From positions 88,290,001 through 88,354,000 of the forward strand of contig NC_086108.1 of assembly GCF_963921235.1 (NCBI RefSeq): a DNA stretch of 64,000 nt, read 5' to 3'. Below the pieces are notes generated by a model that did no database searches, was not told the origin of the DNA, and saw nothing but the letters and a program-made list of their open reading frames with translations. Below are positions 521 through 57,232 of the stretch, in pieces (the stretch's first letter is position 1; each line of letters starts with the position of its first letter). This DNA comes from Mobula hypostoma. Taxonomy: Eukaryota. Made by a program: the position numbers and the translations under genes.

Positions 521-1861
521 ATGTTAACACAGAACATAGCACCGGCCACAATGTTGAGCCAACCTCTTAACAATCAATCTTGCTCCATAAACTGCAGTTA
601 CACTCAGCCACTTCTCACTGAATCCTGGTTGCCCACATTTATATTTACTCCTCAATAAAAGCTACCCATAAATAATGATGAATTAGTTCTCTGCTTCTCT
701 ACCTGAACAGAATTCCTGGAAGTTCAAACAGCCATTGTCGTGATTAATCGCCTGTTATTTAGTTATGTGTTCATGCAGCAGAGGATGATGGAAATAATAG
801 TATCACTCCCTTGAGAATGCCTGATTCAGTGTCAGAGCTTGAAATGTAAAAGAAAATACACATAGAACCCTATTAATAAAAGACACAAGTATTTAACCTT
901 ATTTAAATCCATACACAAACAAATATGCATTTTCTGCAATTCTAACCCAACGAAGATCATATGTTACAATGATGTTAAATGGCGAGATCACCCAAATAAT
1001 ACATTTGTGGAGTTTTGTTTGGGATGTTGCCACTTGATTTCTTTTCCTAAGTGTTGTTTAGTTTGAAAAATTGGTTTTGATAAGGTTGGGCTGGGGGAGG
1101 GGAGGGAGTGCTGGTATCTATGTGCGAGGGCTGAGTTTAAATGGTGTTATTTTGAATCCAGTAAGAACTATACAAATCCAACATAAATTTGCTTAAGAAT
1201 GAATGTAAGTATTTAAATGCAAGATACTGCAAGTGCTGGAAATCAGAAATAAAAAACTAATGCTGAAAATGTTGAACATACCAGTGAGTGTTTAGTTAGA
1301 GGATCATTAATTACAACCAATAACGTCTGATTCATTTCTGAGATTTTTGAACTCTTTGGGCATTGATGTGAGAATTCTGAAGTTATTAAAACGAATACAT
1401 AAACCCACTATGATTTTATAAAGCAATACAGTAACCGAAAGAACTCGATTCATCTTAAGACAGTTGTGTATTCCCAGTGAAAGACCATCCCTACAGAGAC
1501 ACAATATGATTTTTCTTTTAGCTAAGGCAGATCTTTGCTGCAATGGATGAACTGAAGTGATAGCAACAATAGTCTTGCTCAGACACGACGTGTCAGGAGT
1601 AGATAAGTTACAGTGTGTGTAAAAGAATGGACTGAAAAAGTGCTGGATGAATTGATTTGTTGTATCACAAAAGAGCGGATGGGGAAATTCAGTCATCTGA
1701 AGTTTTTGCATCGGATGCTTTTGTTGGGAAATCAGAAAAACTTCCACACACGTTGAACTAATGTGGCATGTCTGATATTCTTTAATACAATGATGTAATA
1801 TAGCCACTGGAAGATGTAAACCAGGTAGTTAAGATATTCAAAATAAATGGCAGATTATTAA

Positions 1862-1925
1862 GCAACACACATCAAAGTTGCTGGTGAACTCAGCAGGCCA
1901 GGCAGCATCTCTAGGAAGAGGTACA
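1862..1925 (-). mobile_element. 64-nt PLE terminal-repeat micro-insertion
   Basis: Near-identical to the reverse complement of ~47195-47258; perfect 13-bp TSD GGCAGATTATTAA at 1849-1861 and 1926-1938. Confidence 0.85.
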
Positions 1926-2008
1926 GGCAGATTATTAACATGGAAGCAAAATACCACACAGATTGAAAGCCTGAAATAAAAAAGAAAACTAGAAATACTC
2001 AACACCAG

Positions 2009-2111
2009 AGTAACTCACACAAAGTGCTGAAGTGCCGGAGGAACACAGCAGGTCAGGCAGCATCTGTGGAGAGGAAATGAGTCGATGTTTTGGACCAAGA
2101 CCCTTGTTTCT
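2009..2111 (-). mobile_element. PLE terminal-repeat fragment
   Basis: pLTR-like sequence; perfect 15-bp TSD AATACTCAACACCAG at 1994-2008 and 2112-2126. Confidence 0.8.
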
Positions 2112-2163
2112 AATACTCAACACCAGTCTGTAGAGAACGAAGGAAAGTTTAAAATTTCACTTA

Positions 2164-2698
2164 CACAAGAGATTCTGTAGATGCTGGAAATTCAGAGTAA
2201 CACACGCAGAATACTGGAGGAGCTCAACAGGTTCAGGCAGCATCTAAAGAGGGAAATAAGCAGTCGACGTTTCGGGCCAAGAACCTTCATCGTGACTGAA
2301 AAGGAAAAGGAAAGATGCCAGAATAAGAAAGCGGGGGAGGGGACAGAGTACAAGCTGGCAATAGGTGAGACTAGGTAAGGGGGAGATGGTTGGGTGAGGA
2401 AGTGGGGATGAAGTGAGAACCTGGGAGGTGATGGGTGGAAGAGGTATAGGTCTGAAGGAGAAGGAATCTGACAGGAGAGGACAGTGGACATTGGGAGAAA
2501 TGGGAAGGAGTAGGGGCACCAGAGGGAGGTGATTGACAGGTTGAGGAGAGGAGGAGAGGTAAGAGAGGAGACAGAATAGGGAACAGAAAAGGAGAGAAGG
2601 AGGAGTATGGAGAAATTAGCGAAAGGTCTAGGCCTGAAATGCTGACTGCTTATTCCCTTCTGACCTGCAGAGTTCCTCTGGAATTTTGTGCATATTAC
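2164..2698 (-). mobile_element. PLE 3' region with an inverted terminal-repeat arm
   Basis: Minus-strand pLTR with degenerate hammerhead (2261-2298), purine-rich tract, then an inverted pLTR copy at ~2622-2700; flanks TTAAAATTTCACTTA / TTAAAATTTAATTTA (13/15) resemble a TSD. Confidence 0.75.
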
Positions 2699-2923
2699 TT
2701 AAAATTTAATTTATTCTATGACCAGCTATACTTTAGTTCTTTTTGTTTGTAGGTACTGGACTAGTATTATATTAACACTACACTACTTAACCCATGTGAC
2801 AACATGCCCAGTATATTATATGTTTAGGTGTGTTTCTGTGTTCTTGTAACAAGGTGTGTCTTAATCCTATTTGGAGTGAATTCCATTGTTTATCTAATGT
2901 CTCTTGTTACCCTTAATTTTCAG

Positions 2924-4912: not shown

Positions 4913-4917
4913 AGGTC

Positions 4918-6312: not shown

Positions 6313-6817
6313 AATTTTACTTGGAAATAATGTAAATGTAATTTACTTCTGGTGAGGTGATCATAGAATGGAAATGACAATGCAATTTTGAAGCATTTAT
6401 AGGAATGTGACTTCTTAAAACTTCTCTCTCTAAGCTAAGAGCAGCAAATGTTAAGTATAAGACAGATTGGTTTTTGACTTGAAATGAAACCAACGGTCAT
6501 GCGAAACAAGAAGCAAAGTAGAGTTAAGAGCAAATCAGATTGTCCATGATCTTATTGAATTAGAGAGCAGGCTCTGGTTCCCTGCTCTTTGATATGTTTT
6601 TGCATTGGAAAGTTTGCCGGCCTATTACTGAAATACTATGAGTCAGGCAGAGCCAACAATACAACTCAGCACTGAAAGGAGATTAAAGACCACACATGTT
6701 CTAGGAAAAAAATAATTGCAGCTTGTAGGTTCCCAGACACTGACCTTGTGTAATACCATCCTCATTTTCAATGACTGGGACCTTGTCAACCCTTTAGAAA
6801 ATATCACTCCCGAATCA

Positions 6818-7015
6818 ACACGCCCAACATGCTGGAGGAACCCAGCAGTTCGGGCAGCATCCGTGGAAACAATCAGTCAACGTTTCGGGCTGAGACCCTC
6901 GTCCTGAAACGTTGACTGTTCGTTTCTACGGATGCTGCCCGACCCGCTGAGTTCCTCCAGCGTGTTGTGCGTGTTGCTTTGACCCCAGCATCTGCAGAGT
7001 ATTTTGTGTTTACGA
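6818..7015. mobile_element. Fold-back (palindromic) PLE terminal-repeat insertion
   Basis: Inverted arms at ~6816-6889 and ~6903-6976; 15-bp TSD ATCACTCC(C/T)GAATCA at 6803-6817 and 7016-7030. Confidence 0.85.
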
Positions 7016-8205: not shown

Positions 8206-8340
8206 ATAAGAGAAAATCTGCAGATGCTGGAAATCCAAGTAACAAACACAAAATGCTGGAGGAACTCAGCAGGCCAGGCAGCATTTCTGGAAAAGAGTAC
8301 AGTCGACATTTCGGGCCAAGACTCATCCTGCTGCAGGATG
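8206..8340 (-). mobile_element. PLE terminal-repeat insertion
   Basis: pLTR sequence; 11-bp TSD TATGCCCACAA at 8195-8205 and 8341-8351. Confidence 0.8.
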
Positions 8341-8351
8341 TATGCCCACAA

Positions 8352-10345: not shown

Positions 10346-10577
10346 CAGAACCCTTCCCTGTTAAGCATCTTCTGCCCAGCTAGATAAGGTTATGGGAAGC
10401 AGTCATCCTTAATGGACTGTGAAGGAGAGAGAGGGAGTAACATTCAGGTTCATTACATGTTCAGAATTAGTACCACAATTGTATACCATGTATTGTATCC
10501 ATAGGTATCCTCTAACTTCCCACTAGTTTTTGTTCGATTATATGTCCTCTGTTTGGGTTTTATGTTGGCTCTTGTTA

Positions 10578-12578
10578 GCCAAAGGTGACACGACTGTGGC
10601 TAACAAGAGAATTCAAAGCCAACGTAAAAGCTAAAGAGAAGGTATATTATAGAGCAAAAATTTGTGGGAAGTTAGAGGACTGGGAACAGAAGGCAACTAA
10701 AAAAGTCATTAAAAAGGTAAAGATGGAATACGAAAGTAAGCTAACCAATAATATTAAAGGGGATATCAAAAGTTTCTACAGATACATAAAGTGTAAAAGA
10801 GAGGCGTGAGTAGATATCAGACCGCTGGAAAACGATGCTGAAGGGGTAGTAATGGGGGACAACGAAATGGTAGATGAACTGAATAAGTATTTTCCATCAG
10901 TCTTCATGGTGGAAGTTCCAGGTGTCAGGGGTCATGAAGTGTGTGAAGTTACCATAACTACAGAGAAGGTTCTTGGGAAACTGAAAGGCCTGAAGGTAGG
11001 TAAGTCACCTGGACCAGATGGTGTACACCCCAAGTTCTGAAAGAGGTGGCTGAAGAGATCGTGGAGGCATTAGTAATGATCCTCCAAGAATCACTAGATT
11101 CTGGAATGGTTCCGGAAGACTGGAAAATTGCAAATGTCACTCCACTCTTCAAGAAGGAAGAGAGGCAGAAGAAAGGAAATTATAGGCCAGTTATTCTGAC
11201 CTCAGTGATTCGGAAGATGTTGGAGTCAATTATTAAGGATGAGACCTCAGGGCATTCGGAGGCACAATGATAAAATAAGCTGACAGGCCATTTTCCTCAA
11301 GGGAAAATCTTGCCTGACAAATCTGTTGGAATTCTTTCAAGAAGTAACAAGCAAGGTAGACAAAGGAGAATCAGTTGATGTTATGTACTTGGATCTTCAG
11401 AAGGCCTTTAACAAGGTACCACACATGAGACTGCTTAACAAGCGACCTCAGAAGTAACATTCAGATTCATTACCTGGTCTTACGATATTACAGGAAAGAT
11501 TCTAGCATGGATAAAGCAGTGGCTGATTGGCAGGAGGCAAAGCATGGGAATAAAGGGAGCCTTTTCTGGCTGGCTGCCAGTGACTAGTGGTGTTCCACAG
11601 GGGTTTGTGTTGGGACTGATTCGTTTTCCATTGTATGTCAATGATTTGGCTGACAGAGTTGATGAATTTGTTACAAAGCTTGCAGATGATATGAAGATAG
11701 GTGGAAGGGCAGGTAGTTTTGAGAAAGTAGAGAGGCTACAGAAGGACTTAGACAGATTAGGAGAATGGACAAAGAAATGGCAGATGGAATACAGTGTCAG
11801 AAGGTCATGCATTTTGGTAGAAGAAATGAAAGGGTTGCCTATTTTTTAAAATGGAGAGAATATACAAAAAGCTGAGGTGGAAAAGTACTTTGGAGTGCTT
11901 GTGCAGGGCTCCCTAAAGGTTAATTTGCAGGTTGAGTCTGTGGTGAGGAAGGCAAATGCAATGTTAACATTCATTTCAAGAGGACTAGAATGTAAAAGCA
12001 AGGATGCAATGTTGAGACGTTATAAAGCATTGGAGAGGCCTCACTTGGAGTATTGTGAGCCGTTTTGGGCCTTTTATCTAAGACAGGATGTACTGAAACT
12101 GGAGAGGGTTCAAAGGAGGTTCACAAAAATGATTCCAGATTGAGTGGCTTGTCTCATGAAGAACGTTTGATGGCCCTGGGCCTGTATTTGCAGGAATTCA
12201 GAAGAAGGGTGACCTCATTGAAACCTATCAAATGGTGAAAGGCCTTGATAGGGTAGATGTGGAGAGGATGCTCTCTATGGTGGGAGAGTCTAATACTAGA
12301 GGACACTGCCTCAGAATAGAGGGGCGTTCTTTTAGAACAGAGATGAGGAGGAATTTCTTTAGCCAGGGAGTGGTGAATCTGGCAGCTTTGGAGGCCAAGG
12401 CTTGATATATATTTAAGGCAGAGGTTGATAGATTCTTGACTGGCTTGAATGGATACAGGGAGAATGCAGAAGATTGGAGCTGAGAGGAAAATTGGATCAG
12501 CCGTGACGGAATGTTGGAGCAGACTCCCTGGACCAAATGGGCTAATTCTGTTCCTATATCTTATGGTCTTATGGTCTT
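10578..12578 (+). mobile_element. CR1 LINE, 5'-truncated, degenerate ORF2 (RT)
   Basis: KSPGPDGVHP, PEDWKIANVTPLFKK, NYRPV, VTSGVPQG, KLADDMK, RPHLEYC motifs across frameshifts; (TTATGGTC)n tail. Confidence 0.93.
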
Positions 12579-13559: not shown

Positions 13560-13930
13560 AGCTTTCTGGCTCCACTCCTACCCCTTCTCCTCAACTGCTC
13601 ATTACCTCCATCTGAGGCCCCTCCTCCTTCCCTTTCTCTCATGGTCAACTCTCCTCTTCTATCAGATTCCTTCTTCTTCAGCCCTTTACCACTTCCCATC
13701 TTCTCACTTTGTTCCTCTCCCCAAACCACCCACCTTTCCCCCTCACCTGGTTTCAACTATCACTTGCCTGTTTGTACTACTTCCTACCTATACCCCCACC
13801 TTCATATTCCTGTTTCTTCCCCCTTCCTTTCCAGTCCTGATGAAGGGTGTCAGCCTGAAACCCCAACTGTTTATTCCCCTCCATAGATGCTACCTGACTT
13901 GCTGAGCTCCTGCAGCATTTTGTGTGTGTC
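13560..13930 (+). mobile_element. PLE 3' region (pyrimidine tract plus terminal repeat with degenerate hammerhead)
   Basis: CAGTC-CTGATGA-agggtgtcagcct-GAAAC at 13832-13861; same layout as 46865-47290. Confidence 0.75.
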
Positions 13931-17828: not shown

Positions 17829-18085
17829 AAATGGGGGGAAACAAAGACAAATGGTTTGTCTGCTTCCCCTGTTCTTGATTAGACTGTAGTTTCTTATGGC
17901 CGTGTGTGTGTGTGTGTGTGTCTGTGGTGTGTGTGTTGGGGGTGGGGTGGTTTGGAATTCGGCGTGCTTTTGCCTGTAAGGATTGTTATCGGGTTTTTTT
18001 TGGAATGTGTTTATGTCACATATCTATTATATCTTCTTGTTACCTTAATTTCATAACTGAAATTGTTGTACTTCCTCAAATTCAG

Positions 18086-21961: not shown

Positions 21962-22505
21962 CTATTTTAACTCTACTTCCACTTCCCATTCTGACATGTC
22001 TGCCCATGGCCTCCTCTGCTGCCTTGACGAAGCCAAACTCAAGTTGGAGGAGCATCACCTCATATTTCTTTTGGGTAGCCTCCAAACTGAAGGCATGAAC
22101 ATTGGCTTCTCGAACTTCTGGTAATTTCTTCCCCCCTCCCTCTTTCTTCCTTTATCCATTCCTCAATCTGGCTCCCCTCTCACCCATTCTCCTCTCCTCA
22201 CCGGCTCATCACCTCCCTCTGGTTCCCCTCCTCCATCCCTTTCTTCCATAGTTCACTGTTCTCTCCTATTCGGTTTCTTCTTCTTCTGCCCTTTACCTCT
22301 TCCAAGCATTCCCTCCCATCTTCTTACTTCAGCTCCCCCCATCACCTGATCTCACCTATCACCTGCCAACTTGTACTCCTTCCCTTCCCCCACCTCCTTA
22401 TACTGGCTTCTGCTGCCTTCTTTTCCAGTCTTTTTCAGGCCTCAGCCTGAAACATTGAGCATTTTGTGTGCGTTGCTCAAGATTTCCGGCATCTACAGAA
22501 TCTCT
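21962..22505 (+). mobile_element. PLE 3' fragment (GIY-YIG C-terminus, pyrimidine tract, deleted terminal repeat)
   Basis: Aligns by eye with 46700-47290 (HSDMSAHGLL...LEEHHLIFLLGSLQTEGMN). Confidence 0.8.
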
Positions 22506-22719: not shown

Positions 22720-22978
22720 CAACACACATCAAAGTTGCTGGTGAACGCAGCAGGCCAGGCAGCATCTTTTTTTTTGGAGAATAATATGTTGGACCTGGAG
22801 GCTGGTGGGGTGGTAGGTGAGGACCAGGGGAACCCTATTCCTAGTGGGGTGACGGGAAGATGGAGTGTGAGCAGATGTACGTGAAATGGGGGAGATGCGT
22901 TTGAGAGCAGAGTTGATGGTGGAGGAAGGGAAGCCCCTTTCTTTAAAAAAAGGACATCTCCCTCGTCCTGGAATGAAA
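22720..22978 (-). mobile_element. PLE internal ORF fragment fused directly to a terminal-repeat end
   Basis: Minus ORF FFKERGFPSSTINSALKRIS...RVPLVLTYHP, then an A-run, then the pLTR 3' end. Confidence 0.8.
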
Positions 22979-26497: not shown

Positions 26498-27394
26498 ATA
26501 CTTATCTTTGGTAAATGGGAGTTATCATAGCTAGGTTTGATGGTTGTAAAAATATCATTGGCAAAGATCTGGAACCTGAAGCCTGAATAACAATGGTTGG
26601 AGTCTCTATTGTAATAATGCCTGGGTGCTTTGTTACCAAGGATCCTTCCACACTTTGCAATCAGTGAACTGCATGGGATGTGGTTGACTACATTGCCTCA
26701 GTCCTTTAAATGGCATGTTAACCTGATGTTGGCCCTTCCTCCACATTGTTTGACATTGTGTCCAAGCTCCCTGACAGGTATTCCAAAACACTGAACTGCT
26801 CTCAGTGCAAAGCTGCCATCTTTTTATAGCCTGGAACTTGGGTGAAACCGGCTGTCACTGAGGCAAGGCTGGGTATGGCCATACTCTCCTGAATATTAGT
26901 AAAATGTTAGACATGTTAAAAGTGGAGTTGATGCTTCTCTGGGCAAATGGTATGAGGGACCAAGGTATGTCGGTATTAGGGGTCAGCCATTTAGAACAAT
27001 CATGAAGAGAAAAAGAAATAATAACTCGGTATGGTCTAGATGGGATGAAGGGCCTGTTTGTGTGCTGTAGTGGTCTGTGGCTCTTTAATACCCCCAACAT
27101 AGGGTTTTGACCCAAAATGTCAACTGTCCTTTTGCTTCCACAGATGCTGTAGTCCTGATGTGTTTCTCCAGCAATTTTTGTTTTTTTTTGCTGCTGATTC
27201 CAGCATCTGCAGTCTCTTGTGCTCCCAATGATATGAAGGATTTCTATCACACAGAGGTTCTGTCACTGAATATAATCAAGCTGGAGATGAATATACTTTT
27301 CGAGTTTAAAAGAATCAATCAAAATTAGGTGAATGCAGAAAAGGTAGTGCTGAGGTAAAAAAAAAAATCAGCCATGATCTTAGAAGAGTGAGTT

Positions 27395-32510: not shown

Positions 32511-33113
32511 ATAATGAATATTTTGCTTAAAAAGATGAAACAGGAGATTATGAATGGTCTTTTACACATTTTGCAATCAATTCCCAATACAGTCTTCTAA
32601 AACAAGACATTGTATAAAAAGATAGGAACTCCTATCACAAAACTGAAGGTCAAGTGGATGTGTGTGATAAAAGGGAGGGAGTATCAATGCAGTGGGAAAT
32701 TTGCACCATATGCAAAGGTTATAGGAACATGTAATGAAAGATTAGGGGGTTAAAACATAACTTGATAAATCCAAGCAGACAACAAAGGTAAGAACAAACC
32801 TGTACTAATATTACACATTAATAGCTCATTGATTACTTTTGATGTCTTGTCAGTGAAATGAGGCAGCTAATTCCCTCACCGAGTGATCCCACAAATAGTA
32901 ATGTAATGTAGAAATCTGGCATAAATGATCTGTTGGGATAAACATTCCTTCGGTAGGACAGATTGGATATCTGTTAAACACCTTAATTAATTTTAAGCCA
33001 ACATAGCTGACATTTCTAATCACCAAACACTCTAATAAACTTCTACGGAATCAACACACATAAAATACTGAAGGAACTCAGCAGGTCAGACAACATCTAT
33101 AGAAAAGAGAAAA

Positions 33114-33151
33114 CAGTCTATGTTTCGGGCTGACGCACTTCTTCAGGACTG
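33114..33151 (-). ncRNA. Minimal hammerhead ribozyme motif, partly degenerate
   Basis: Minus strand reads cagtc-CUGAAGA-agugcgucagccc-GAAA-c-AUA-gacug: stem I and core intact, stems II and III weakened. Confidence 0.55.
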
Positions 33152-34177
33152 AAAGGAAGGGGGTTGATGCCAGAATTAAAAGGTAGGGGAGGGGAAAGAG
33201 GCTAGCTGGAAGCTGATAGGTGAAGCCAGGTGGGTGGGGAAGGTCATGGGCTGGAAAAGAAAGAATCTGATAGGAGAGGAGAGTGGAGAATGGGAAAAAA
33301 AGGACACCCGGGGGAAGTAATAGGCAGGCGAGAAGAAGTGAAAGGTCAGAGATGGAATGGAAGAAGGGGGAGGGGGAAAATATTTTTCACCAGAAGGAGA
33401 AATTGATACTCATGCCATCAGTTTGGAGGGTACCCAGATGGAATATAAGGTGTTTGCTCCTCCATCCTGAGGGTCGCCTCATCTTGACACAAGAGGAGGC
33501 CATGGATTGACACGTTGGACGGGAATGAGAATCGGTATTAAACTGTTTGACCACCGGGAATTCCCGCTTGTGGTGGATGGTGCAGAAGTGCTTGATGAAG
33601 CGATCCCCCAATTTACGACGGGTCTCACCAATGTACAGGAGGCTGCATCAGGAGCACCGCACACAATAGATGACCCCAGCAGATTTGTAGATGAAGTGTT
33701 GCCTCACCTGGAAGGACAGTTTGGGGCCCTGAATGGAGGTGAGAGAGGACAGGGATAGCACTTAGGCTGCTTGCAGGGTTAAGTGCCTGGGAGAAGGGGC
33801 AAATGTACAAGGGCATCACAGAAGCACCGATCAGTGTGGAAAGGTGGGGGTGGGGGGAGGTAAAAATATGTTTTGTGGTAGGATTCTTCTGGAGATGGCA
33901 GAGGTTGGGAGGATAATGTGTTGGATGTGGAGAATGGTAGGGTGGTAGGTAAGGACAAGAGGGAGTCTATCATTATGGCAACAGGAAGATGGGGTGAATG
34001 CAAATGTATGGGAAATGAAGGAAATGTATTGAGGGCAGCATCGATAATAAAGTGAGGGAAACCCTGTTCTTTAAAGAAGGAGGACATCTCAGATGTCCAG
34101 GAATGGAAAGCCTTGAGAATAGATGTGCAGAGGTGAAGAAGCTGAGAAAAGGGAATCCGGTGGGAAGAGGTATAGTC

Positions 34178-39509: not shown

Positions 39510-39672
39510 TGTTGGGTATCTTCCCCTTTCCTCTCCAGTCCTGATCAAGGGTCTCAGCCTGAAACATCGATTGCTTATTCCTCTCCATAGATGCTGCCTA
39601 ACCTGTAAAGTTCCTCCAGCATTTTGTATGCGTTCCTCAAGATTTTCAGCATTGGCAGAATCTCCTGTGTTT
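39510..39672 (+). mobile_element. PLE terminal repeat (degenerate hammerhead)
   Basis: CAGTC-CTGATCA-agggtctcagcct-GAAAC-ATC followed by pLTR sequence. Confidence 0.75.
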
Positions 39673-40529: not shown

Positions 40530-41192
40530 CTATATCAGGTTGGCTGTACTGGAAGAGACTTGTCTTTGTCTCCCCTCTGTAACAGCTGCTGGTATGACAT
40601 AAATGCTCAGTTCCGCTCTACCTGAAGTCCCAGTTACTATGTGGGGACAAAGCTTGAAGATTAAACTGTAGAGAAGGAGCAGGAGGAGAATGATAGAGCC
40701 GAACAGTGTAATAGCAACTCCTGCAATTAACATGTCACTCCAGGACCTGACTGAGAGATGAGGATCGGAATTTGCCAGGATTATCAGCACATAACCACAT
40801 ATGAGTATTACAGATCCAGCAATTAAAATAAGCAAATAATCAATTGACCCTCCACTTCTTAGCTTGTTAATTTGGGTCCGGTTCCTCATACAGTTCATAT
40901 CCTGGATTGCAGAGCTCAGCAGCTGCTTTAGGAGGATGCCTAAAGCTAGGAGGCACAGGACAGTTCCAACTCCCAGACGCCATTCACTCGATTTACTCGT
41001 GGCTGTGGACAATAAAACGATTCCTCCCAATCCAGTGGCCAGGATCAACACCACAGCCACGGAGTAACATAAGATTGAGCGCTTAAGGTCCTGGAACCAC
41101 CACAGTTCCACCTGATCCTCCAGAATGCTCTGTTGGATACGAAAAGGATTTGCTGGTGGTCGGCCAGGTGTGATCTCAGATTGCTCAGACAT
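40530..41192 (-). CDS. tmem125: Transmembrane protein 125, 220 aa, four hydrophobic segments, single coding exon
   Basis: MSEQ...LEDQVELWW...GLGGIVLLSTATSKSSEWRLGVGTVLCLLAL..LLKQLLSSAIQDMNC...LRSGG...SSSTANLI matches the TMEM125 signature. True start ATG at 41192, directly after a tttctccag acceptor. Confidence 0.95.
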   Translation of the reverse strand: MSEQSEITPGRPPANPFRIQQSILEDQVELWWFQDLKRSILCYSVAVVLILATGLGGIVLLSTATSKSSEWRLGVGTVLCLLALGILLKQLLSSAIQDMNCMRNRTQINKLRSGGSIDYLLILIAGSVILICGYVLIILANSDPHLSVRSWSDMLIAGVAITLFGSIILLLLLLYSLIFKLCPHIVTGTSGRAELSIYVIPAAVTEGRQRQVSSSTANLI

Positions 41193-43494
41193 CTGGAGAA
41201 ATTGTCCACAGTCATTCAAAAGGAAAATCAATATCTATCTAAGTCTTAGAAATATACAAGATTTTGAAAACACATATAGCAAAACTCAAAATTGTTCTAC
41301 TGATTGAATAATTATTTGACAAAAATCTTCAAAGTTGTTCAGATTAATTTAGAACCTATAGATAACAAGAGAACCGTGGTCTTAATAGATAGTCATGTCA
41401 CATCAGATCAGAGAACAGAAACTTCAGGAATTGGAAAGCAGTATTCACCACATTTTTGAACATGATTTTCATTTGAATAGACATTATAAATTCCATGTTA
41501 TGCTTTTCAGTATCACCTTTTCATTCATGTTCTTCAGTACATCCTTGATACCACAAATAAAGCAGCCTTGGATATATATGCCCGGACTTTTATTTGTCTT
41601 GGATGTTAGTAAGTTTGCAGAAGTTCACAGGAAAATCATAGGTAACATTATTCCAACCATCCATAAGTCTGAGCCTGTCTTATGAAATCACTCAGTGAAT
41701 TCAAACACACTATCTTCTCTAATTCTCTTCCTTACTCAGTTCCATAACGATGAGGTGAATTTCCCATCTCTCATAATGTGGTCAAGGAAAAGATGCACTT
41801 CTGATGATTTGCTGAGCCTGGGGCTATCTCAGAAAACAGGATAACATAAAGTTCACCGATGGATGACTATTGCTGCTTTTCTTAATGCAATCTTCAATTC
41901 AGAGCTATCTCTCTGTGTTAAATCTCGCCAGCATCCTGCTCCTTATTAGTAATGAGTTTCAGCCAATGGTGCAATTTCACACCGGATGGCTTTCTCAAGG
42001 TAAGGCTAACGTCTAATGAAGATGCAACTAAGAGGTGCAAACCTGATGTGAAAGAAGGCAGTCCTCCAGTCCACAAATAGTCCATGCGCACAGATTGTGA
42101 TGGTATTCTGCAGTTCCAAAGGGTATTTGCTGTTTACAAGCTGAGTTTGCAAACAGTGAGAATTCTCCAGGCTTTGTTTATCAGGGTGAGCTTACTGTCT
42201 CATTCCAATTACGCTGACTCCAGGTTAGACGTTTCTTCTGCTATATCACCTTGATCTTTTCCAGCCTGTCACAGGGCAAGGTGTTTAATTTCCAGATCGA
42301 TTACTGCCGTCTTAAAGCAGGTAACTGATTAGTCCAGCTCTGGTGGTGGAGTGAGTTGCTGCTTCAGACAACTATCTCGGAGAAGAAAGTAAATCCATTG
42401 TCAGTTTTCATCCTGCAGTTTGGCAGATTTTTCCAGAATCTTGTGGGTGGAGCTTGCTGTGCTGTTTTCCAGTTTCAGGTAAATCTCTTGTGAGCAAGCT
42501 TTGACTCTGCCTCCACTTTTGCTCCCAAGAAGATTCAGGTCCTACTATTGTTAGACCGTGCCTTTTGACAAGCTTTGTGTTGTGTTCAAATAATCCAGCC
42601 ACTTGGGCAGTTTGCAGACAGAATGGCTTGTACAACAAGCCAGTCAAAGTGCTTTGTTTAACTAAAACCTTCCTTGGTGCATTTATAATTTGGGTAGTTT
42701 ACTCCAGTGTTTCACCTGGAACAGTCAGCCACTTCCACTTAAGGTGGACTTCAGCAAATACAGAAAAATTTTACATGTACTAAAAGAAAATCTCTGATCC
42801 ACAGAAACATAAAAAGAAAATGCTTGTAATTTTAAATATGTGTGCCAGATCCCATAAAATATCATTAATATTAAAAATAGTAAATTAATGTCAGATAGAG
42901 TTTTCTAGTTTCCCTTGAAGAGAAAAAGAGCAAAACAGTTTTATATTAATACAAAGGCTTAACTCACTATCTGGCACTTTTTAAATATGTCTAATGAGTA
43001 TTGGGTCAGCCTTTGCCTGGATTACACACACACTTCCTTTGTTTTCTTACTGCCATGAGCTTCTCTTGCTTCATGCATTATACTTTATTTCTGGTCCCTG
43101 GTGTGTGAGTGTGGTCTTTGTTCAATGAATAGATCCTTTCTGTAGTTGTTATGCAGCTGGAAAATGGTGGAATGGTCGACTGGTGCTTCTGAAGAGCTGA
43201 AATGTCAGCTGGTGCCATCTCTCCATAGGTAACATGTCCTCTTGTCTTATAAATAATGGAGTCCTTTGGGGTATGACAATTGTCCTAATCTGAATGCCTG
43301 GCCACGTGGTGTAATGATTTAGTGGTGTGATTAGCATAATACTGCTGGTATTGTTGGAAGTTTTCTGAAAATAAAATCCCAATAATTTATCAGCTTTTTG
43401 ACAATGTCATTCGATTGAATCAAATATAGAGGCAAACCTTTCAGCCCATCAAACTAGTGGAAATGCCTTAAATGAGATAACCATTTAATTGATT

Positions 43495-43832
43495 CTATTT
43501 CTTACCCTGGCCTCTTACCTCTTTCACTCACCTACCTATCACCTCCCCCCAGGTGCCCCTTCTTCTTCCTTTTCTCCTATGGTTCACTCTCTTTTCCTAT
43601 CAGATTTCTTCTTCTCCAACCCTTTACTTTTCCTACCCACCTGGCTTCACCCATCACTTCCACCCCCACCCCCCTCAAATTTTCATTCTTCCTTTCCAAT
43701 TCCGAAGAAGGGCCTTGGCCCAGAACATCGACTGTTTGTTCACTTCCATAGACGCTGCCTGACCTGGTGAGTTCCTCCAGCATTTTGAGTGCATTGCTCT
43801 AGATTTCCAGCATCTACAGAATCTCTTGTGTT
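43495..43832 (+). mobile_element. PLE 3' region / terminal repeat
   Basis: Pyrimidine tract, decayed hammerhead and pLTR tail. Confidence 0.75.
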
Positions 43833-45460: not shown

Positions 45461-45694
45461 TCAAGTAACACACATAAAAGTTGCTGGTGAACGCAGCAGG
45501 CCAGGCAGCATCTCTTGGAAGCGGTACAGTCGATGTTTCGGGCCGAGACCTTTCGTCAGGACTAAGGGTCTCGGCCCGAAATGTCGACTGTACCTCTTCT
45601 TAGAGATGCTGCCTGGCCTGCTGCGTTCACCAGCAACTTTTATGTGTGTTGCTTGAAATTCCAGCATCTGCGGATTTCCTCGTGTTTGCGTTTT
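45461..45694. mobile_element. Fold-back (palindromic) PLE terminal-repeat insertion
   Basis: 93-nt inverted arms (45461-45553, 45564-45656) with 7 mismatches and a 10-nt spacer; TSD-like TAAGAGAGAATTCC / TAAGAGAGGATTTC. Confidence 0.9.
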
Positions 45695-46189
45695 TAAGAG
45701 AGGATTTCAGATGTTTTGAAACATTCATCTGATCCTGCAGCCATCACACTTTCCCATTAACAATTATAACATAAAGATAAGTTTGTTTGACAAATCTACA
45801 TCAAAACACCTCACTGCCCAAATCACAGACACACTCTCATCCTGCACTGGCCATTTATTGCTGCTGTTTCACAGATTTGCATGTCTGCTTGTTTTATTAT
45901 AATAATGCCAGTAACTCCACACTGTCTTACATAAGCATGCACCTCACCGTTTATGTCATACTGTTAATATTCAGGCCATGCCACTCAGAGACTTTTTCTA
46001 ATCTTATTTTGTAACTGTATGAGCTGGATCATAACTATACAGTATGCGCGGTGTGTGACTACATGGACTGTGCCTTGCACCTTCACCCCAGAGGGACAAT
46101 GTTTCATTGAGCTGTATCCATGTGTGTGGTTGAATGACAATAAACTTGGGCTTGAAACATACAGTGAAGCGCATCCCTTGCATCAAATC

Positions 46190-46402: not shown

Positions 46403-46552
46403 AGAACATATATGAGCAGTGCTAACATTTAATGTGACTTCAGTGTCCGAAGTAAAGTAGGAATGTTCAAATACAGAGAAGTAATGTGCTTAGATGACGT
46501 ACTGCCTGCTAATAAGATCTGAGGATTTGTTGAATGATGAGTTCTCTGCTAC

Positions 46553-47290
46553 ACCTGTGAGTCGGCTGGGGTGATATACTGCGCCTGGTGCTCCTGATGT
46601 GGCCTTCTATGTATTGGCGAAACCCGACGCAGACTGGGAGACCGCTTTGCTGAACACCTACACTCTGTCCGCCAGAGAAAGCAGGATCTCCCAGTGGCCA
46701 CACATTTTAATTCCACATCCCATTCCCATTCTGACATGTCTATCCATGGCCTCCTCTACTGTAAAGATGAAGCCACACTCAGGTTGGAGGAACAACACCT
46801 TATATTCCGTCTGGGTAGCCTCCAACCCGATGGCATGAACATCGACTTCTCTAACTTCCGCTAATGCCCCACCTCCCCCTCGTACCCCATCCGTTATTTA
46901 TTTTTATACACACATTCTTTCTCTCACTCTCCTTTTTCTCCCTCTGTCCCTCTCACTATACCCCTTGCCCATCCTCTGGGTTTCCCCCCCCCTTGTCTTT
47001 CTCCCCGGACCTCCTGTCCCATGATCCTCTCATATCCCTTTTGCCAATCAACTGTCCAGCTCTTGGCTCCATCCCTCCCCCTCCTGTCTTCTCCTATCAT
47101 TTTTGGATCTCCCCCTCCCCCTCCCACTTTCAAATCTCTTACTAATTCTTCCTTCAGTTAGTCCTGACGAAGGGTCTCGGCCTGAAACGTCGACTGTACC
47201 TCTTCCTAGAGATGCTGCCTGGCCTGCTGCGTTCACCAGCAACTTTGATGTGTGTTGCTTGAATTTCCAGCATCTGCAGAATTTCTGTTG
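46553..47290 (+). mobile_element. Young 5'-truncated Penelope-like element: GIY-YIG endonuclease, 3' region and terminal repeat
   Basis: Manual translation of 46553-46864: TCESAGVIYCAWCS*CGLLCIGETRRRLGDRFAEH...PVATHFN...LEEQHLIFRLGSLQPDGMN (one stop); 16-bp TSD TCTCTGCTACA(C/T)CTGT at 46543-46558 and 47291-47306. Confidence 0.92.
47160..47195 (+). ncRNA. Minimal type I hammerhead ribozyme (PLE-associated, dimer type)
   Basis: aguc-CUGACGA-a-gggu(cucg)gccu-GAAA-C-GUC^-gacu: stem I aguc/gacu, 4-bp stem II with tetraloop, palindromic ACGU in place of stem III, GUC cleavage triplet at 47189-47191. Confidence 0.8.
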
Positions 47291-47526
47291 TCTCTGCTAC
47301 ATCTGTTTGTTTTTGCAATCAAGTACACAGTCTAATTACACTGACTGTTCATTATGTTCGAGCCCCTGCCCCCCACTCCCGTGACATTGAAAGGTTGTGC
47401 CACATCCCACTATCTCAGTGAAAGGAACAGACTTGAGATTTGCTTGGGTTCAGGTGCTTATTTAGGTCATTATCTGGTATCCCGTGCAGTACCCTCACCA
47501 GGACCTTCTCAACGTTCTCAAAATTC

Positions 47527-47710
47527 ACAAGCAAAAGAAAATCTGCAGATGCTAGAGATCCAAGCAACACACACAAAATGCTGGAGGAACTCAGCAGGCC
47601 AGGCAGCATCTATGGCAAAGAGTACAGTTGACATTTGGGCCTGAAACATTGACTGCCCTTTTTTCTATAGATGCTGCCTGGCCTGCTGAGTTCCTCCAGC
47701 ATTTTGTGCA
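47527..47710. mobile_element. Fold-back PLE terminal-repeat insertion
   Basis: Inverted arms at ~47572-47637 and ~47640-47708; decayed TSD GTTCTCAAAATTC / GTCCCCAAATTTC (10/13). Confidence 0.8.
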
Positions 47711-48427: not shown

Positions 48428-51400
48428 TAAAGACTTTCTGAATTTTTCCCATCTGTAAAGAATCAAAAATTATAATCTTACCATGGACCAACCACATAGA
48501 CATGAGAAAACAAAGATACCCCACTGATCTAAAAAATGATTATTTTCAAATATACTCCAGAAAGTACTTGCACAAAATGTTGCAGTTGAAGATAATGTGT
48601 AAGCCTTACTGATTTCTTGATTTTGTGTATATACTGAATTCTAAAATTAGCTTTTGTATATTGGTAGTGAAGTAGGCCATGATAGTTTGATAATTAAACA
48701 ATTGACTGAGTTGTAAGAAATAAACACAATCAATTATATTTACATACAGAAAAATGTAACTGTAGCCCTCTCACTGGGGCTCATATGCAAAATTGGATTG
48801 ATAGATAACTCCACTAACAGCCACCTGACTCTGCAATGAGAAGGCAATATGTTATAATAATATACGTCTGGGTCGGTATGGTTTGTGTTTCAACTAAACA
48901 GGAAAGCTGGGAAGTTCTGATTAAAGGAACCTTGATATGAACCTTGATAAATACCGCCATACAGAATTACTGGTTGCCAAGAAATGACAATTCGTACACC
49001 AGAACATTTTACCAGCAGGACACACTACTTTTGCAAAATACTACTAAAATGAATTACCTCACAGCATAGCAGTAGAAATTTTAACCAGGGCATTACATTC
49101 ACTCCCCCACCAAAAATAGTTATGTCCTTTTGACTTTGGAACTTATTAAATCCATTTGGAATTTATTAGATCGTCACAGTATCCAAATGAATTTCATGAT
49201 TTCAGGGCCCACACCCCGCAATCCATTTGTAAATGGCAGTAACATATCTCATTATTGGGATAGCCATAACACTCTGTTTCCCCAGTGTGTTATATGCCAG
49301 CCTATCTGGGGGTTTCCTGACTCTCTGAGACATTCTTATCTCATCTTCAGCCTCAGGCACTCCTTGGGACTGTTCCTGTTTACTTGTGGGTGCTTCCCCT
49401 TATCCATCACTTGTATCTTCCAGCAGCTCAGGTCCCCCTGTCACCTGACTGAGCTCGGCTACATCCCCAATTACATTGGAGCCCAGTTTCCCCTCACTGA
49501 CTATCATCATGTCTGCCTGTCCACTGCTAGTCCCCCCACCCCGCTACATCTGAGTCAGAGTTGGGAGATTCAAACATCTCTTCATCAATTCTTGGAGAGT
49601 TTGCATAAGGGAAAGCATACACACTCATCCCCTGAGTCTGTACGGTATTCCAGTATTCAGTGTTTGGTTTCTTTTCAGTTCTTTCTGCTGATTGCCTTTC
49701 TGTTCTCCTCCTTCTGTGTAGAGTTCCAAGTCAGGTTCTGGACCAACACATACCTCCTGCCCTAAAGGCAAAAAGTGATTCCAATGGAGATTTTGACTGG
49801 GCCATTCCCATCTTCTGGCTTCAGCACCTATACAAGGGTCATCTCGCTTGGCGGCTGCCAGTTCCGCAGGATTCAAGGCAGGCAACAACTTCACATACCG
49901 AGTGGTCAAGTTGCAATATGTTTGTGGAAGGGTACAACCAGAAGCTCCTAAATGATCCACAGCTCTATCATGCCATAGCCTTTCCTCTGATTTCCCCACT
50001 GTGCAAAGCAGGCACATTGCATTAACACCAAAGGCAGAAACACCCTCCCACTCTCCGTCCATTTCTGGCACCTCATGGGAATGTCGGGACAATGCATCTG
50101 CATCGATGTTCCGCCTCCCTAAACAATATTTAAGGCTGAAATCATAAGCAGATAATGCCACCAACTAGTGATGATCCATGGCATCCAACTTCGCTGAGAT
50201 CAGGATATAAGTGAGTAGATTGTTGTCAGTCCTCTGCTTGAACTTGGCACTATATAGACAGTCACTTAATTTATCCACCACACCCCATTTCAATGCCAGA
50301 AAATCCAATTTGTGTATAGGGTAGTTTCGTTCAGAGGGTGACAGACTCTGGTTGATTAAAGCAACAGGTTTCAACCGTTTGCCCTGGTCCTGATATAGAA
50401 CACTGCCTAAGCCCTCACGGCTGGTGTTGGTATGCAGTACGTACAGAAACTGGGGGTTGATTCAAAGGGTGGCTTACTCTGGAATAGTCCTTCACAAATC
50501 TCCCACAGAATCTCCCATGGTACCCACAGAATCCAAGGAATGAGCAAAGGGTGCTCACGTTCTTGGTCCCTGGTCATATGGTCACCGCCTCTTTCTTGGG
50601 AAGATCTGTAGCCACTCCATCCTGAGAAACTATGTGCCCGACGTGGTTGACTGATGTCTTACAGAACTGGCACTTGTTCAGTGACAGTTTTAACCCTTCA
50701 GCTTTCAGGCAGTCCAGCACCTTCAGTTGCCTCGTCTCATGCTTCTCCAGTGTACACCCGAACACTGTGAGATCATCCAAGAACGCCATTACTCCAAGCA
50801 TAATCATGACCCCAACAGTCTTCTCCACAACACATTGGAAAGTAGCTGGTGCTCCTGACATACGCTGGGGCATTCTTTCAAACTGGAAGAATCCAGGTGG
50901 ACATATAAATGCCATATTCTCCTTATCAGCTTCATTTATGGGTATCTGATAATACCCACTCCTTTGGTCCAACACACTAAACCATTTTGCTCCACTCAGA
51001 CAGGCCAGAGCATTCTCAATCTGTAGAACAGTACTTTGGTCCAGGACTGTACATCAGTTCAATGAACAATAGTCAACAGACATTTGTACCTTCCCATTCT
51101 TCTTCCTTGCCACCACTTGCCTCAGTGATAATTCCAGCTTCCTTCAGTTTCAGCAGGTGCTGCTGAATATCTTCCACCTCTGCCGGTGCTAACTGTCAAA
51201 ACCTTTTGCTGAAAGCGGTGTCCTTCATCACCTGAATAGTGTGGAAAGCAAACCACATTGAACTTATCAGTAGAGAAGACATTTTCGAACTTTAACATCT
51301 TCTCCAATGTTCTCTTTTTTCCATCCTTCAGGTACCGAGGAGTCATGTAAGTTGATTGACTTTGCTGTTAACTTTCCTGATCCAGGAGATTGTCTCTCTG

Positions 51401-52979: not shown

Positions 52980-54261
52980 CATTCCCGGTTGAAATGTCCA
53001 TCCTTACCATAGTTGTAACAGAAAATACTGGTCGCTTACCTTGTCAAGAGACCCTGTCAGCAGCAACCCTCTGCTTATTATGTCCGACTGGTGGGCCTGG
53101 CTTCTTATGAGACCTGTTACGCTTGGAGGCAGCACAAGCCATCATCAACCGAGATACCGCTGGTTTTTCACTACATCCTGCAAACCCCAGGGGTCGCTTC
53201 AGCAACAGAGGTTACTACTGAGGACTTTGCCCTGCTGATGGAGGCCTTCCACTCCTCCAGTGTATTTTCTTCCTTTCTTAATTTAATTCTCTGATCAGTT
53301 CAACGAATGAGGGAAGGGGAAGAATCTTATGAAATATTTGAATGCTTAAAGCAATCACATCACATGACAGTGCGCCCTTCACCACTAGCTCCATCCTTAA
53401 TTGATTTATCTCAGCCAGTTGAATGGCCCTTTTATAGCACAAGCAATGCAATTGTCTCTCTAGCCTGAAAATGTAGGCAGAAAGTTTCGCCCCTTTCTCC
53501 TGGAATGTGTGCCTAAACTTAATCATTAGCTCTGCTGGGTTGTTTGTTGTGCCAAAAACATTTTCTAATGCTTGCATGTTCTCTACGGGCTTGACCAACG
53601 GGTTTTCTGCCTTTAGAGATCTTACCACCTCAGTATCCGGACCTTGTAGACTCTCTACCAGTCGCTGTCTTTTCATAATATCTGAGCACTGCCTCTCATC
53701 TGATAACTGACCCAAGTCTCATGTTCTTCCTCCCCACTGGGGGTGGGCTTGATCCCAGAGAACATTCTCAGCCTACAATAACTTTGGTTCCCCATAGGTA
53801 CACTTTGGCATTTATCAACCAGTGATGTAATTGCCAAAGCCAGCTCAAAATTTCCATCAACCGCTGAAGGACCCATTAGACCTTTCACATTAGATAATGC
53901 CTTCCACTCACTTCACAGAGATGAGAACAACTTGCCTTTAAGATCTTCACCCTCAGCTACATGCCCCACTTCTCTAAAAATATGGACTGCCCATGGCTCC
54001 GCCTCTCCAGGTGCCCTTGTCCTATCAGGCACTGCAATTTGAATTACGTCACTACTAGTCTGGACTGACATGACATCCTTACCAGCTAATTGATCAAAAC
54101 ACCATTCAACCGGCATAACTTTCCCCAATACTTTTATAGAACTCAGCACTCTAATTAGCAGTTCATCAGGGCTTCAGATGCCCACCCCATTCAGATCAAA
54201 AGCATTTATTTGTGGATAACCTCTTTGAAACACACCAAACCTTAATCCCTGCGGCGTCCAT
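52980..54261 (-). pseudogene. PNMA-like gag remnant of the Gypsy element
   Basis: YCRLRMFSGIKPTPSGEEEHETW, KRQRLVESLQGP, ALENVFG, TFQEKGAKLSAYIFRLE, FCYNYGKDGHFNREC; broken by frameshifts. Confidence 0.85.
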
Positions 54262-55439
54262 AATAAAGTATCTTGATCACTTCCCCAACTCTAGTTTAAA
54301 CACAGGCTTAAACACATAAACTGCTTAATCAATTCTTAAACAGCATTCACACAGCATCTGGATCCCGGGTGGACCCCCACAAATGTAACTCTCTCACCAG
54401 GGCTTGTATACAAACTTGGTTAGATAACTAACTCTGCTAACAGCCACGTGACTCAGCAGTGAGAAGGCCACATTTATAAAAATATATGTCTAAGGTCGGT
54501 ATGATTTGGGGTTCAACCAAACAGGGAAGTTGGGATATTCCAATTAAAGGAACCTTGACTTGAGGGAATGTTGAGTAAACACTGCCCATACAGAATTACC
54601 GGCTGCCAAGAAATGATAAATTGTACACCAGTATAAAATTATAAAGAAAGTATACTTACCAATTTCAGCTATATCAAACAGTTATTAAGAGAAAGAAGAA
54701 AAAAGGCCCATTAAAATTTGATTGGTCTAAATATGCACATGACCTTTGGAGCTCATCTCTTCCAAAAGCTGGGTATAACCATTACTCATGACGCTGAATT
54801 CTCATCGCCAATCACTTGTAGAACTTCCCATCTTGAACTACTTCGTCTCACAAAGGACCCCTTGCAATAATGTCTACCCATCAGATTAAATCTTACGGGC
54901 GTCTTCCCAATCTTCTCCTCTCTGCATCTCCTGCCAAAAAACCATGAACCCAACCACTGTCCATCACTAATCTCTTTCTGCCCAGCTCTCTCTAGAACCT
55001 TCTCCTGATCCCGCCATCCTGATTGGCTGACACAATATTTCTAAGTAGAACAACATGGCTCCTTAACTTTAGCCGAGATCAAAACAATCTACCAGCAGGA
55101 CACACTGCTTTTACAGAAAACTACTAAAATGAAATTCCTCACAGCATAGCAGTAGAAATATCAACAAGGGCGTTCCTTATGCAAATGTTAGCTTCACACT
55201 GGATAAATTAAGACTGCAATTTTATTCCTAGACTAACAGGATTCAACACCCAATACTAGGTGCCAGACTCCTAAATCATGTACAGCTTTGTCAGCAATGC
55301 CTTCATCTGATAAATACATTACAAATGTGCACTTATCTTTCCAACTCTGCACTTCATTAAATATGTTTTATAAACCAACTTCTTTAATAAAGTAACTGAG
55401 GATCATAATATATATTTGAGTGGCTCTGGTAAGTTTGGT

Positions 55440-55865
55440 CAAAGAGTCATAGAGCACTACAGTGCAGCAACAGGCCCTTTAGCCCATCTAGTCCATGATG
55501 AACTGTTCATCTGCCTAGTCCCATTGACCCAAACCTGGGCTAATCCCTGCATAGCCCTTGTGTCCACGTACTTATCCAAACTTCCTTTAAGTGTTGATAT
55601 CAAACCTGTAACTACTGCTCCTTCTGACAGCTTGTTCCACAGTTGCATCGCCATCACCTTTTACCCTTAACCTATAACATCTAGTTCCAGTTTCACGCGA
55701 CATCAGTGGAAAAAGTGTGCTTGTATTAATCCTCTCTCTACGCCTTGTAATTTTGTATAGCTCTATCAAATCTCCTCTCATTCTCCTATACTACAGAGAA
55801 TAAAATCCTAACCTATTCAATCTTTCCCTATAACTTCAGTCCTCAAGTCCCAGCAACATCCTTTT
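55440..55865 (-). mobile_element. CR1 3' fragment
   Basis: MRGDLIELYKITR remnant. Confidence 0.8.
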
Positions 55866-56854
55866 TGGCCTGAAAATGCTTCCCATAGATGCTGTCTGAC
55901 CTGATCAGTCCCTCCAGTGTTTTGTGTGTGTTGCTTGGTACATTTGGCTGTGTAATGTAGAATTGCCACAGCAACTGCATTACAAAAACGACCATCTTTC
56001 TCAACAGACTGATTCAAGCTTCATCCCTGCCTACAGTGCAGCCTACAATTCCCACTCCCTTTACCAGAAACCTTCTCCACTCCCTTTGTGCTGATTATCA
56101 GCAATGCTGAGCAATCCTTAGATAAGAAAGGAGTCAGAGGTCAAAGTGCTAACTTCTGATAAAAGTAAGTAAGACACACGTGATGTGGGGTGAGTTGGAG
56201 AAGGCTGAGCGGTGAGCTGTATGTACATTGCTCACATGTCTATAATGCAGAAAGTCATTGAGAATATTGGCCAGAAACAGTGCAAATTGTTTTACATGTT
56301 ATAGGACTGTTGAGGAACTAGATAAAATTTACTATTTTTTCGATTTGTGTACTTTGTAAATAAGCTTTTGAGTACATTTGCTTTTGTTTCCTGCCATGGG
56401 AGCTCTCATTGCATGTGTGATTGGAGAAAGATGTATGCTTATGATAATGAAATCATTTGCAGTTCACATAGGACACATTTATTCTTGTTTGATAGATATT
56501 AGGTAATAAAGGTAATTTCAGATTATGGGTGATATGTAATTCTTTCACAACAGAGACCAGTGAAGATGAATACAGGCAACATATAGAGTGAACCTAGAAT
56601 TTGTGATAATATGATCAAAAACATTAAGAAACATTTGCTAATATGAGAACCACTTTTTAATTTTATTTACGGAGTCACTAAAAGGCTTATTCTATTTTAA
56701 ATCTGCTCCCTATTCTGATGATTATTTAGATGTACAGTCTCTGAGCCTGAAAATGTTTCAGTTTTAAAATGAAATCTTGAAGTGAAATGAAATTGAGTCA
56801 TTCAGCACAAAACCAGACCCTTCAGCCCAGCTCATCTATTCCAACCAAACCCTG

Positions 56855-57232
56855 TCCTGGTTTTCTTCTCCTCAACTGCCCATCTCCTTCCTCCAATGCC
56901 TCTCCTTCTTCTCTTTATTTCTTGATCCACTGTTCTCTCCTATTAGATTCCTTCTTATTCAGCCCTTTACCTCAATCACCTATCACATCTCACCTTCTTA
57001 TTTTTAACCCCCCCCCCCTCAGCTTCCATCCACCCACCTTCTCCCTCACTTGGTCTCACCTATCACCTGCCATCTTGTACTCTGTCCCCAACACACCTTC
57101 TGACCTCCTTTCCAGTCCCAATAAAGGATCCTAGTCCGAAACGTCGACTGTTTATTCCCCTATCTGACTTGTTGGATTCCTCCAGCATTTTTTGTGTTGT
57201 GCAAGATTTCCAGCATCTGCAGAATCTCTTGC
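56855..57232 (+). mobile_element. PLE 3' region / terminal repeat
   Basis: Pyrimidine tract, CCGAAACGTCGACTG and pLTR tail. Confidence 0.75.

Follow-up and report, generated by a model that had tools for sequence, protein, structure and literature searches.

How did one stretch of a ray genome come to hold many pieces of a single repeat, several of them as inverted pairs, that stop at one of two points? The stretch is a 64,000-nucleotide segment of Mobula hypostoma (NC_086108.1, positions 88,290,001 to 88,354,000), called the window throughout, and its pieces are, by their sequence, 5'-truncated copies of the terminal repeat of a Neptune-type Penelope-like element (PLE). The original prediction, made from the letters of the window alone, held that this repeat carries a hammerhead ribozyme and spreads as mini-elements with two fixed 3' ends. 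We observe two end classes, a pairing of one long with one short arm, target-site duplications (TSDs) around the pairs, and the parent element. The insertions are real and highly non-random, and they represent a new member of a known PLE class. Twin priming, in which each cut strand would prime its own complementary DNA (cDNA), probably accounts for the 5'-truncated Neptune-type copies as a whole.

Two 3' ends and their pairing

Positions are given on a scale set by the predicted hammerhead cut (window 47191 is 0 and 47192 is +1), with the natural copy L207 as reference. Pieces were sought with a profile built from 65 natural copies in an all-age sample of 1,184,000 bases, comprising the window and 11 blocks of 100-120 kb on 11 contigs. 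A young set was taken as the first 100 matches, in genome order, to a core 37-mer; with four overlapping duplicates removed it gave 86 loci, and leaving out two tandem or read-through loci gave 97 terminal arms. Loci chosen for best score were excluded from the end and pairing counts. Among the young arms, 50 end at +60 to +74 and 47 at +99 to +103, with none between, so that the predicted bimodality of the 3' ends is confirmed. Solo copies use both ends (23 short, 22 long). In the all-age sample 291 of 313 hits reach +45 or beyond; 135 of these are short (at or before +79), 138 are long (at or after +90), and the 18 that fall between are old and frayed. In tandem copies the repeat continues through both ends into the open reading frame (ORF), which indicates that both 3' ends are internal to the RNA. 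The letters shared with the target average 2.05 at short ends (0 of 3000 simulations) and 1.11 at long ends (p 0.014), against 0.71 by chance; this null replaced a first version that was one-sided and too lenient.

Inverted insertions follow a strict rule. Young pairs were taken from the young set and from the blocks, and so overlap the all-age pairs. A long arm is joined to a short arm in 46 of 47 TSD-flanked young pairs, in 49 of 52 young pairs regardless of TSD, and in 25 of 26 head-to-head pairs of all ages with a TSD score of at least 9 (binomial p 8e-7), a score reached by 39 of 4000 shuffled flank pairs. The pairing rule proposed from the window therefore holds beyond it. The TSDs of the young pairs are 12-18 bp long, 13-15 bp in 36 of the 47, and have a GC content of 30% as against 44% for the loci.

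These features would be expected if the endonuclease makes a staggered double cut, its two nicks lying about 13-15 bp from each other, and if every nick starts a separate cDNA on sense RNA from one of two internal sites that are some 35 nt apart. When both nicks prime, one would use the long site and the other the short site, and the two cDNAs would be joined head to head, often via a few shared bases, leaving a hairpin; when a single nick primes, a solo copy with either end would result. The end classes, the pairing and the TSDs thus support the two defined start sites, the retrotransposition route and the priming from both strands of a staggered cut that had been proposed, and the ray copies add strong genomic evidence that both cut strands likely prime copying of the element RNA.

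A family of miniature inverted-repeat transposable elements (MITEs), in which a DNA transposase amplifies one or a few hairpins, could be invoked instead. Indeed, one inverted junction, -34/-22, occurs in 188 exact copies genome-wide (all genome-wide counts are of exact sequence patterns), and five of the ten best matches to the 45461 hairpin, selected for likeness, have its junction. However, the 47 pairs fall into 42 junction classes, and in four sampled cases of -34/-22, the commonest junction, the long arm lies on either side (3 versus 1). The ends are asymmetric, TSD length ranges over 12-18 bp, and arms extend up to 2 kb into the reverse transcriptase (RT) gene; the fixed unit, symmetric terminal inverted repeats and fixed short TSD of a MITE are not seen in insertions of the window family. 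Junction diversity and the swapping of roles refute a MITE origin, in agreement with the original prediction, and we give it next to no credence.

Fold-back self-priming is a closer competitor. Here a strand would snap back at a palindrome and be copied, after which the endonuclease would resolve the hairpin and leave the tail on one arm; such fold-back on an antisense template was proposed for rotifer PLEs (PMC3846280). The near identity of the arms in most short pairs suits this scheme, as do junctions placed preferentially in self-complementary sequence, for example in helix I and the -34/-22 quasi-palindrome, and breaks that lie within 20 nt of each other in 28 of 46 pairs. Diagnostic letters differ between paired arms in 38 of 403 cases, compared with 37% in random pairs. 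But fold-back needs the tail-bearing arm as template, and needs it to be the longer one, whereas the short arm reaches at least 20 nt further upstream in 12 of the 46 pairs (the long arm in 6), with an excess of up to about 850 nt; L033-L035 is another example. Moreover, in at least 4 of 47 pairs (L257, L259, L222 and L298) the two arms within a single TSD carry different letters at non-CpG diagnostic sites, an outcome expected from two RNAs and also from two units of a single heterogeneous tandem RNA, and the equal use of both ends by solo copies also speaks against fold-back. Fold-back is already contradicted as a general route; it may explain a minority of hairpins, and as an account of the whole we regard it as unlikely.

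Several observations weigh against twin priming, which we nonetheless prefer. The TSD-flanked pair L275 is short plus short, and one old pair is long plus long. Three or four arms classed as short end well inside the short zone (+19 to +51), and the short site has some target microhomology, whereas non-homologous starts are reported in PMC11167929. Most pairs share one haplotype, which is expected also under fold-back or later gene conversion. L212 and L223 share an inverted junction (-824/-2649) at two sites with different right flanks, which shows that a source copy can pass on an inverted junction. Finally, the mechanism is read from finished insertions only.

The window pieces and their parent element

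The profile search finds 21 pieces in the window, where about 20 had been claimed. All 18 end positions originally listed carry the described sequence to within a few bases, and three pieces are additions to that list, ending near 13929 (short), 27220 (long) and 55938 (short). The features are as follows.

47159..47196 (+): minimal type I hammerhead motif, with helix I formed by 47159-47163 and 47192-47196, the core from 47164, helix II at 47172-47183 and the predicted cut at 47191/47192
47140..47158 (+): branch-point-like, polypyrimidine and CAG stretch, by sequence, ending at the 5' edge of helix I and overlapping the -19 to -50 break zone
47251..47291 (+): short end zone (about 47251-47259), then the "tail" to the long end (about 47291)
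46549..47290 (+): 742-bp 5'-truncated copy with the C-terminal GIY-YIG part (one stop), 3' untranslated region (UTR), hammerhead and long end; 15-16 bp TSD
45461..45698 (both strands): inverted insertion whose short arm (-) breaks at about -33; the long arm (+) runs from -21 and has a few additional bases from the ORF side; 12-bp TSD, one mismatch
6816..7010 (both strands): older inverted insertion, short (-) plus long (+); 15-bp TSD, one mismatch
2164..2700 (both strands): older inverted insertion in which the long arm (-) spans about 450 bp and the short arm (+) starts near 2620; 9-bp TSD
47530..47708 (both strands): older inverted insertion, long (-) plus short (+, end near +55); TSD test not passed
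1862..1921 (-): solo copy with the short end, start at about +1 to +8; 13-14 bp TSD
2009..2106 (-): solo copy with the short end, from an older subfamily; TSD of 15-16 bp
8206..8338 (-): solo copy with the long end, start at about -29; TSD of 12-13 bp
13816..13929 (+): short-end copy with older 3' UTR upstream (profile search)
22458..22505 (+): decayed long-end fragment (profile search)
22720..22978 (-): short-end copy from +19, linked via an A run to an ORF piece (-1090 to -886)
27093..27220 (+): decayed long-end copy (profile search)
33052..34113 (-): older copy with the short end, about 1.06 kb long and including the ORF end
39517..39671 (+): older long-end copy (profile search)
43684..43832 (+): older long-end copy (profile search)
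55865..55938 (+): decayed short-end copy (profile search)
57103..57232 (+): older long-end copy (profile search)

Each of the four inverted insertions combines a short and a long arm, and in each an arm breaks in or beside stem II, as had been noted (-23 in 2164-2700; -20/-19 in 6816-7010; -33/-21 in 45461-45698; -17/-13 in 47530-47708). Three of these pairs have a TSD that passes our test (9 bp exact, and 15 and 12 bp with one mismatch each), and 47530-47708 has none that does; TSDs of 12-16 bp flank the solo copies ending at 1862, 2009, 8206 and 47290. Not every piece is a mini-element: 46549-47290 and 33052-34113 contain the end of the GIY-YIG coding region. That the family spreads as mini-elements is unsupported. 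Copy lengths form a continuum up to 3.5 kb, with the minis at its lower end, and nothing points to a mini lineage that copies itself. Mini copies are likely dead ends, because sequence downstream of the long end is missing from them. The arrangement at 22720-22978 resembles a template jump onto a polyadenylated end.

The translation of window 46549-46864 is the end of a GIY-YIG domain, and related loci in the genome encode both RT and GIY-YIG. One of them, L207, is complete: flanked by a 14-bp TSD, it combines a partial tandem and an inverted short arm with an open frame of 1,043 codons and a long end. Its frame matches RVT_1 (E 5e-5) and GIY-YIG (E 0.0025) below the Pfam cut-offs, and the GIY-YIG match of L030 lies at the cut-off. 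The motifs of L207 run in the order DKG, YIDD, CX4CXXC linker, GIY-YIG. The linker (residues 910-918) agrees with the CX2-5CXXC motif between RT and endonuclease (EN) that is common to Neptune and Nematis (PMC8557442), and therefore points to one of these two clades. The L207 protein has 830 homologues, most of those listed with RT domains, and the best named one is from Chiloscyllium punctatum (72%). A pseudo-long terminal repeat (pLTR) made of a partial tandem plus an inverted 5'-truncated copy inside a TSD is seen in L207, L201 and L208. The element thus has the make-up of an EN+ PLE: an RT followed by a C-terminal GIY-YIG domain, a pLTR structure with TSD, and a 30-40 nt tail that is continuous with the start of the ORF. 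The 313 pieces in 1,184,000 bases extrapolate to roughly 900,000 genome-wide; the core 37-mer has 19,894 exact matches and the read-through junction 368. L144, L160, L313 and L328 form a subfamily marked by a shared duplication of 209 nt in the N-terminal, proline-rich region of the ORF. Searches of literature listings on rays and sharks, which covered neither subscription journals nor Repbase, returned no description of this Penelope family.

The window also holds a TMEM125 family coding sequence at 40530-41234 (-) (E 2e-51) and an exon of an adaptor complex medium subunit gene at 17879-18340 (+) (PF00928). Fragments of another RT-bearing element, LTR-retrotransposon-like by appearance, lie at 49085-51053 (-), with RVT_1 at 50574-51053 (E 4e-22), and LINE-like RT fragments at 59595-61105 (+) (RVT_1 E 1e-5, below the cut-off). 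A 63-nt inverted repeat, 81% complementary, at 10508-10679 does not match the Penelope profile.

The 5' breaks, the predicted hammerhead and a splice-type joint

The terminal repeat has the core letters and both helices of a hammerhead and fits the description of the PLE motif in PMC4209133. Its helices pair in 95% of 81 cells without beating the shuffle control, and covariation did not exceed the control (145 of 500 shuffles). An Rfam search at E up to 1 gave three matches, all hairpin shapes and none a hammerhead, and the fold of L207 3800-4040 was no better than shuffles (z -1.4). We asked where copies break relative to the predicted cut. Upstream extension past it is seen in 88 of 97 arms, so those templates extended past the ribozyme site, and the template would be mostly RNA uncut by the hammerhead. 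The break hazard per 100 nt, in windows picked after inspection of the data, is 0.79 at +9 to -1 (8 of 96 arms), about six times the background of 0.12. The main pile-up lies at -19 to -50, with 1.77 (38 of 86 arms; 14 of 42 solos). Elsewhere the hazard is 0.13 at -2 to -18 and at -51 to -100, 0.04 at -101 to -320, and 0.12-0.13 beyond -365. A second cluster stands at -321 to -365, near the ORF stop codon (0.55; 9 of 41 arms at risk; L209-L298). Breaks are thus in excess at the predicted cut, but their main concentration falls 19-50 nt upstream of it.

Could cutting of the RNA by the hammerhead nevertheless set the extent of the mini-elements? The excess at +9 to -1 would fit this, as would L260 and one block pair, in which both arms stop at +2 to +7, and the solo L221, which starts at +1. 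Yet the site is passed by nearly all arms, the main pile-up lies elsewhere, and the 3' ends are 60-103 nt downstream of it. The +9 to -1 junctions of three pairs are also explicable by helix I microhomology, the +1 junctions of two pairs sharing four letters through helix I, and cleavage is dispensable in vitro (PMC11167929). Cutting covers about a tenth of the arms at best, and a "ribozyme-delimited" RNA, as had been proposed, is not supported; we hold it improbable that the cut sets the extent of the copies.

Most copies are tiny, which would reflect cDNA synthesis that often ends 19-50 nt upstream of the cut site, and the most likely reason, in which our confidence is about even, is that many templates begin there. 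The break zone was compared with the upstream repeat of full-length copies (n=26), which came from 20 of 30 loci of one set and 15 of 20 of another, the latter a best-score set used here only; jump-type and overlapping loci were omitted and the values entered by hand. Breaks at -19 to -50 occur in 2 of these 26, compared with 38 of 86 arms (p 0.0004), so a plain sequence-fixed RT stop is not the cause. When both breaks of a pair lie beyond -60, they agree within 16 nt in 3 of 10 cases (p 0.0003). In the jump-type tandems L304, L306, L321, L325 and L326, two or three passes per insertion stop at nearly one point, and this point varies between insertions (-30, -40, -43). Repeated stops within one insertion are most likely the 5' ends of templates, again with about even confidence, a splice-linked block being a live rival. 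On the other side of the scale, a promoter that starts templates at -19 to -50 predicts more full-length copies starting there than 2 of 26.

Two further ideas were discarded. A subfamily boundary at -31 was rejected for young copies, in which TSDs or partner arms abut the breaks, and a fixed cDNA length was rejected because long and short arms break in a common zone. Among solos that break within -19 to -50, those with long ends do so mostly at -37 to -47 and those with short ends at -21 to -32 (n 9 and 5, p 0.005; L209-L298).

The rival just named would replace only the explanation of why copies are short. Under it, a splice acceptor causes the pile-up, RT on unspliced or lariat RNA being halted either at the branch point (about -46) or by AG-bound factors (-33). 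Branch-like, polypyrimidine and AG motifs do end at helix I, nine arms break at -43 to -47, and L203 and L333 show exact use of the acceptor. In Drosophila virilis the Penelope intron also ends at the 5' end of helix I (PMC4209133); it begins 46 bp after the start site (PMC2377424). Against this, the joint is found at two loci only, the AG is needed for helix I pairing anyway, the entire UTR is pyrimidine-rich, and the zone is mostly passed by full-length copies. A splice-linked cause is possible but doubtful, and template starts remain our preferred reading.

The joint itself is precise. L203 has four tandem junctions, and L333 (1496-1961) two, that join +276 to -33 with no shared or added letters, giving a unit of 309 nt. 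The skipped sequence starts with GT in one common allele and ends with AG after a polypyrimidine and branch-like stretch; the joint coincides with the 5' edge of helix I. The two loci lie on different contigs, have their own TSDs, and differ in haplotype and in end (short and long, respectively); the exact pattern has six matches genome-wide, all at these loci. No other jump junction among those listed is GT-AG, and no unit junction among the listed jump-type ones lies at 0/+1. The arrays would be most simply read as the product of more than one round of copying on a back-spliced circle; a spliced tandem transcript, or a single old deletion passed on by descent, could also account for them. 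Two copies thus hint that element RNA may be spliced at the ribozyme edge. Listings searched for back-splicing gave reviews or plant papers only. In L304, L306, L321, L325, L326, L319, L299, L204 and L148 the copy leaps from its 5' stop to a point at the ORF start, mostly +235 to +283, and repeats, which suggests RNA 3' ends or a protein-held site there.

Taken as one scheme, a dimeric enzyme would prime two cDNAs, one per nick and start site and sometimes on two templates, while the 5' edge of the hammerhead would serve as a splice acceptor, the spliceosome closing a 309-nt circle (donor +277, acceptor -33) that is copied into retrozyme-like arrays. We put this combined scheme forward tentatively.

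Comparison with known systems

Models of PLE integration still compete, even with a first in vitro study done, and since this genome holds tens of thousands of young copies, they can be separated by counting. Twin priming is favoured over the fold-back scheme in print by the near-absolute pairing of long with short arms, a stagger of 13-15 bp, arm lengths that vary independently, and pairs with discordant arms. Should the splice-type joint be real, it would offer PLEs a way to become retrozyme-like arrays without the ribozyme.

In LINE-1 (long interspersed element 1) twin priming, a second nick primes a second cDNA, which leaves an inverted 5' part inside one TSD. In LINE-1 the upstream site at which the second primer anneals varies, and the two parts do not overlap, whereas in the ray element the sites are fixed and close together and the arms copy one stretch twice.

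The nearest biochemical parallel is PAc, a Poseidon element of Anolis carolinensis, whose protein cuts and extends both strands in vitro (Frangieh 2024, PMC11167929). Its tail is bounded by two internal start sites, which show no strand difference in their use; its targets are AT-rich, and hammerhead cleavage is not needed (PMC11167929). The ray element is alike in having two probable internal RT start sites that bound a 30-40 nt tail downstream of the predicted hammerhead, in its AT-rich targets, in the probable use of both strands and of uncut RNA as template, and in genomic ends that fall on the start sites. It differs in its Neptune/Nematis-type CX4CXXC linker and in a GU-rich start region (AC-rich in PAc), and the excerpted text of PMC11167929 contains neither a pairing rule nor TSD sizes nor a map of 5' breaks such as the ray data provide. 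The novelty implied for the two ends and the one-arm tail does not stand, both having been published as the PLE "tail" (PMC11167929; PMC3846280, PMC8557442); with both-strand extension also published, the core of the finding is known in kind. Literature searches that did not cover subscription journals found no text with a twin-priming model or a pairing count for PLEs.

Minimal hammerheads of PLEs have, like the motif predicted in the ray repeat, a short helix I, an extra base before helix II and a palindromic helix III (Cervera and De la Pena 2014, PMC4209133). As in the ray, they occur in opposite-strand pairs 100-700 bp apart, mostly as single truncated copies, but the ray copy number, roughly 900,000 by extrapolation, is far higher than that of the PLEs in that paper. 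Non-LTR retrozymes derive from PLEs and are non-autonomous (bioRxiv 10.64898/2026.07.22.740005), and L203 and L333 resemble them in being tandem, short, hammerhead-bearing units derived from a PLE. However, the L203/L333 junction is a GT-AG joint and not a ribozyme cut, tandem hammerhead units are confined to these rare loci and the window pieces form no such arrays, and RNA delimited and circularised at the cut is at odds with the 88 of 97 arms that pass it.

Finally, in EN+ PLEs of Adineta vaga and in Naiad the tail is often on only one end of inverted pLTRs (Arkhipova 2013, PMC3846280; Craig 2021, PMC8557442). The ray element shares with them partial tandems, an inverted 5'-truncated copy, a tail on one end and palindromes at inverted junctions; its TSDs are longer (13-15 bp, as against 8-10 bp). 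Those papers derive the tail from endonuclease resolution and the inversion from self-priming, whereas the ray data favour two independent cDNAs.

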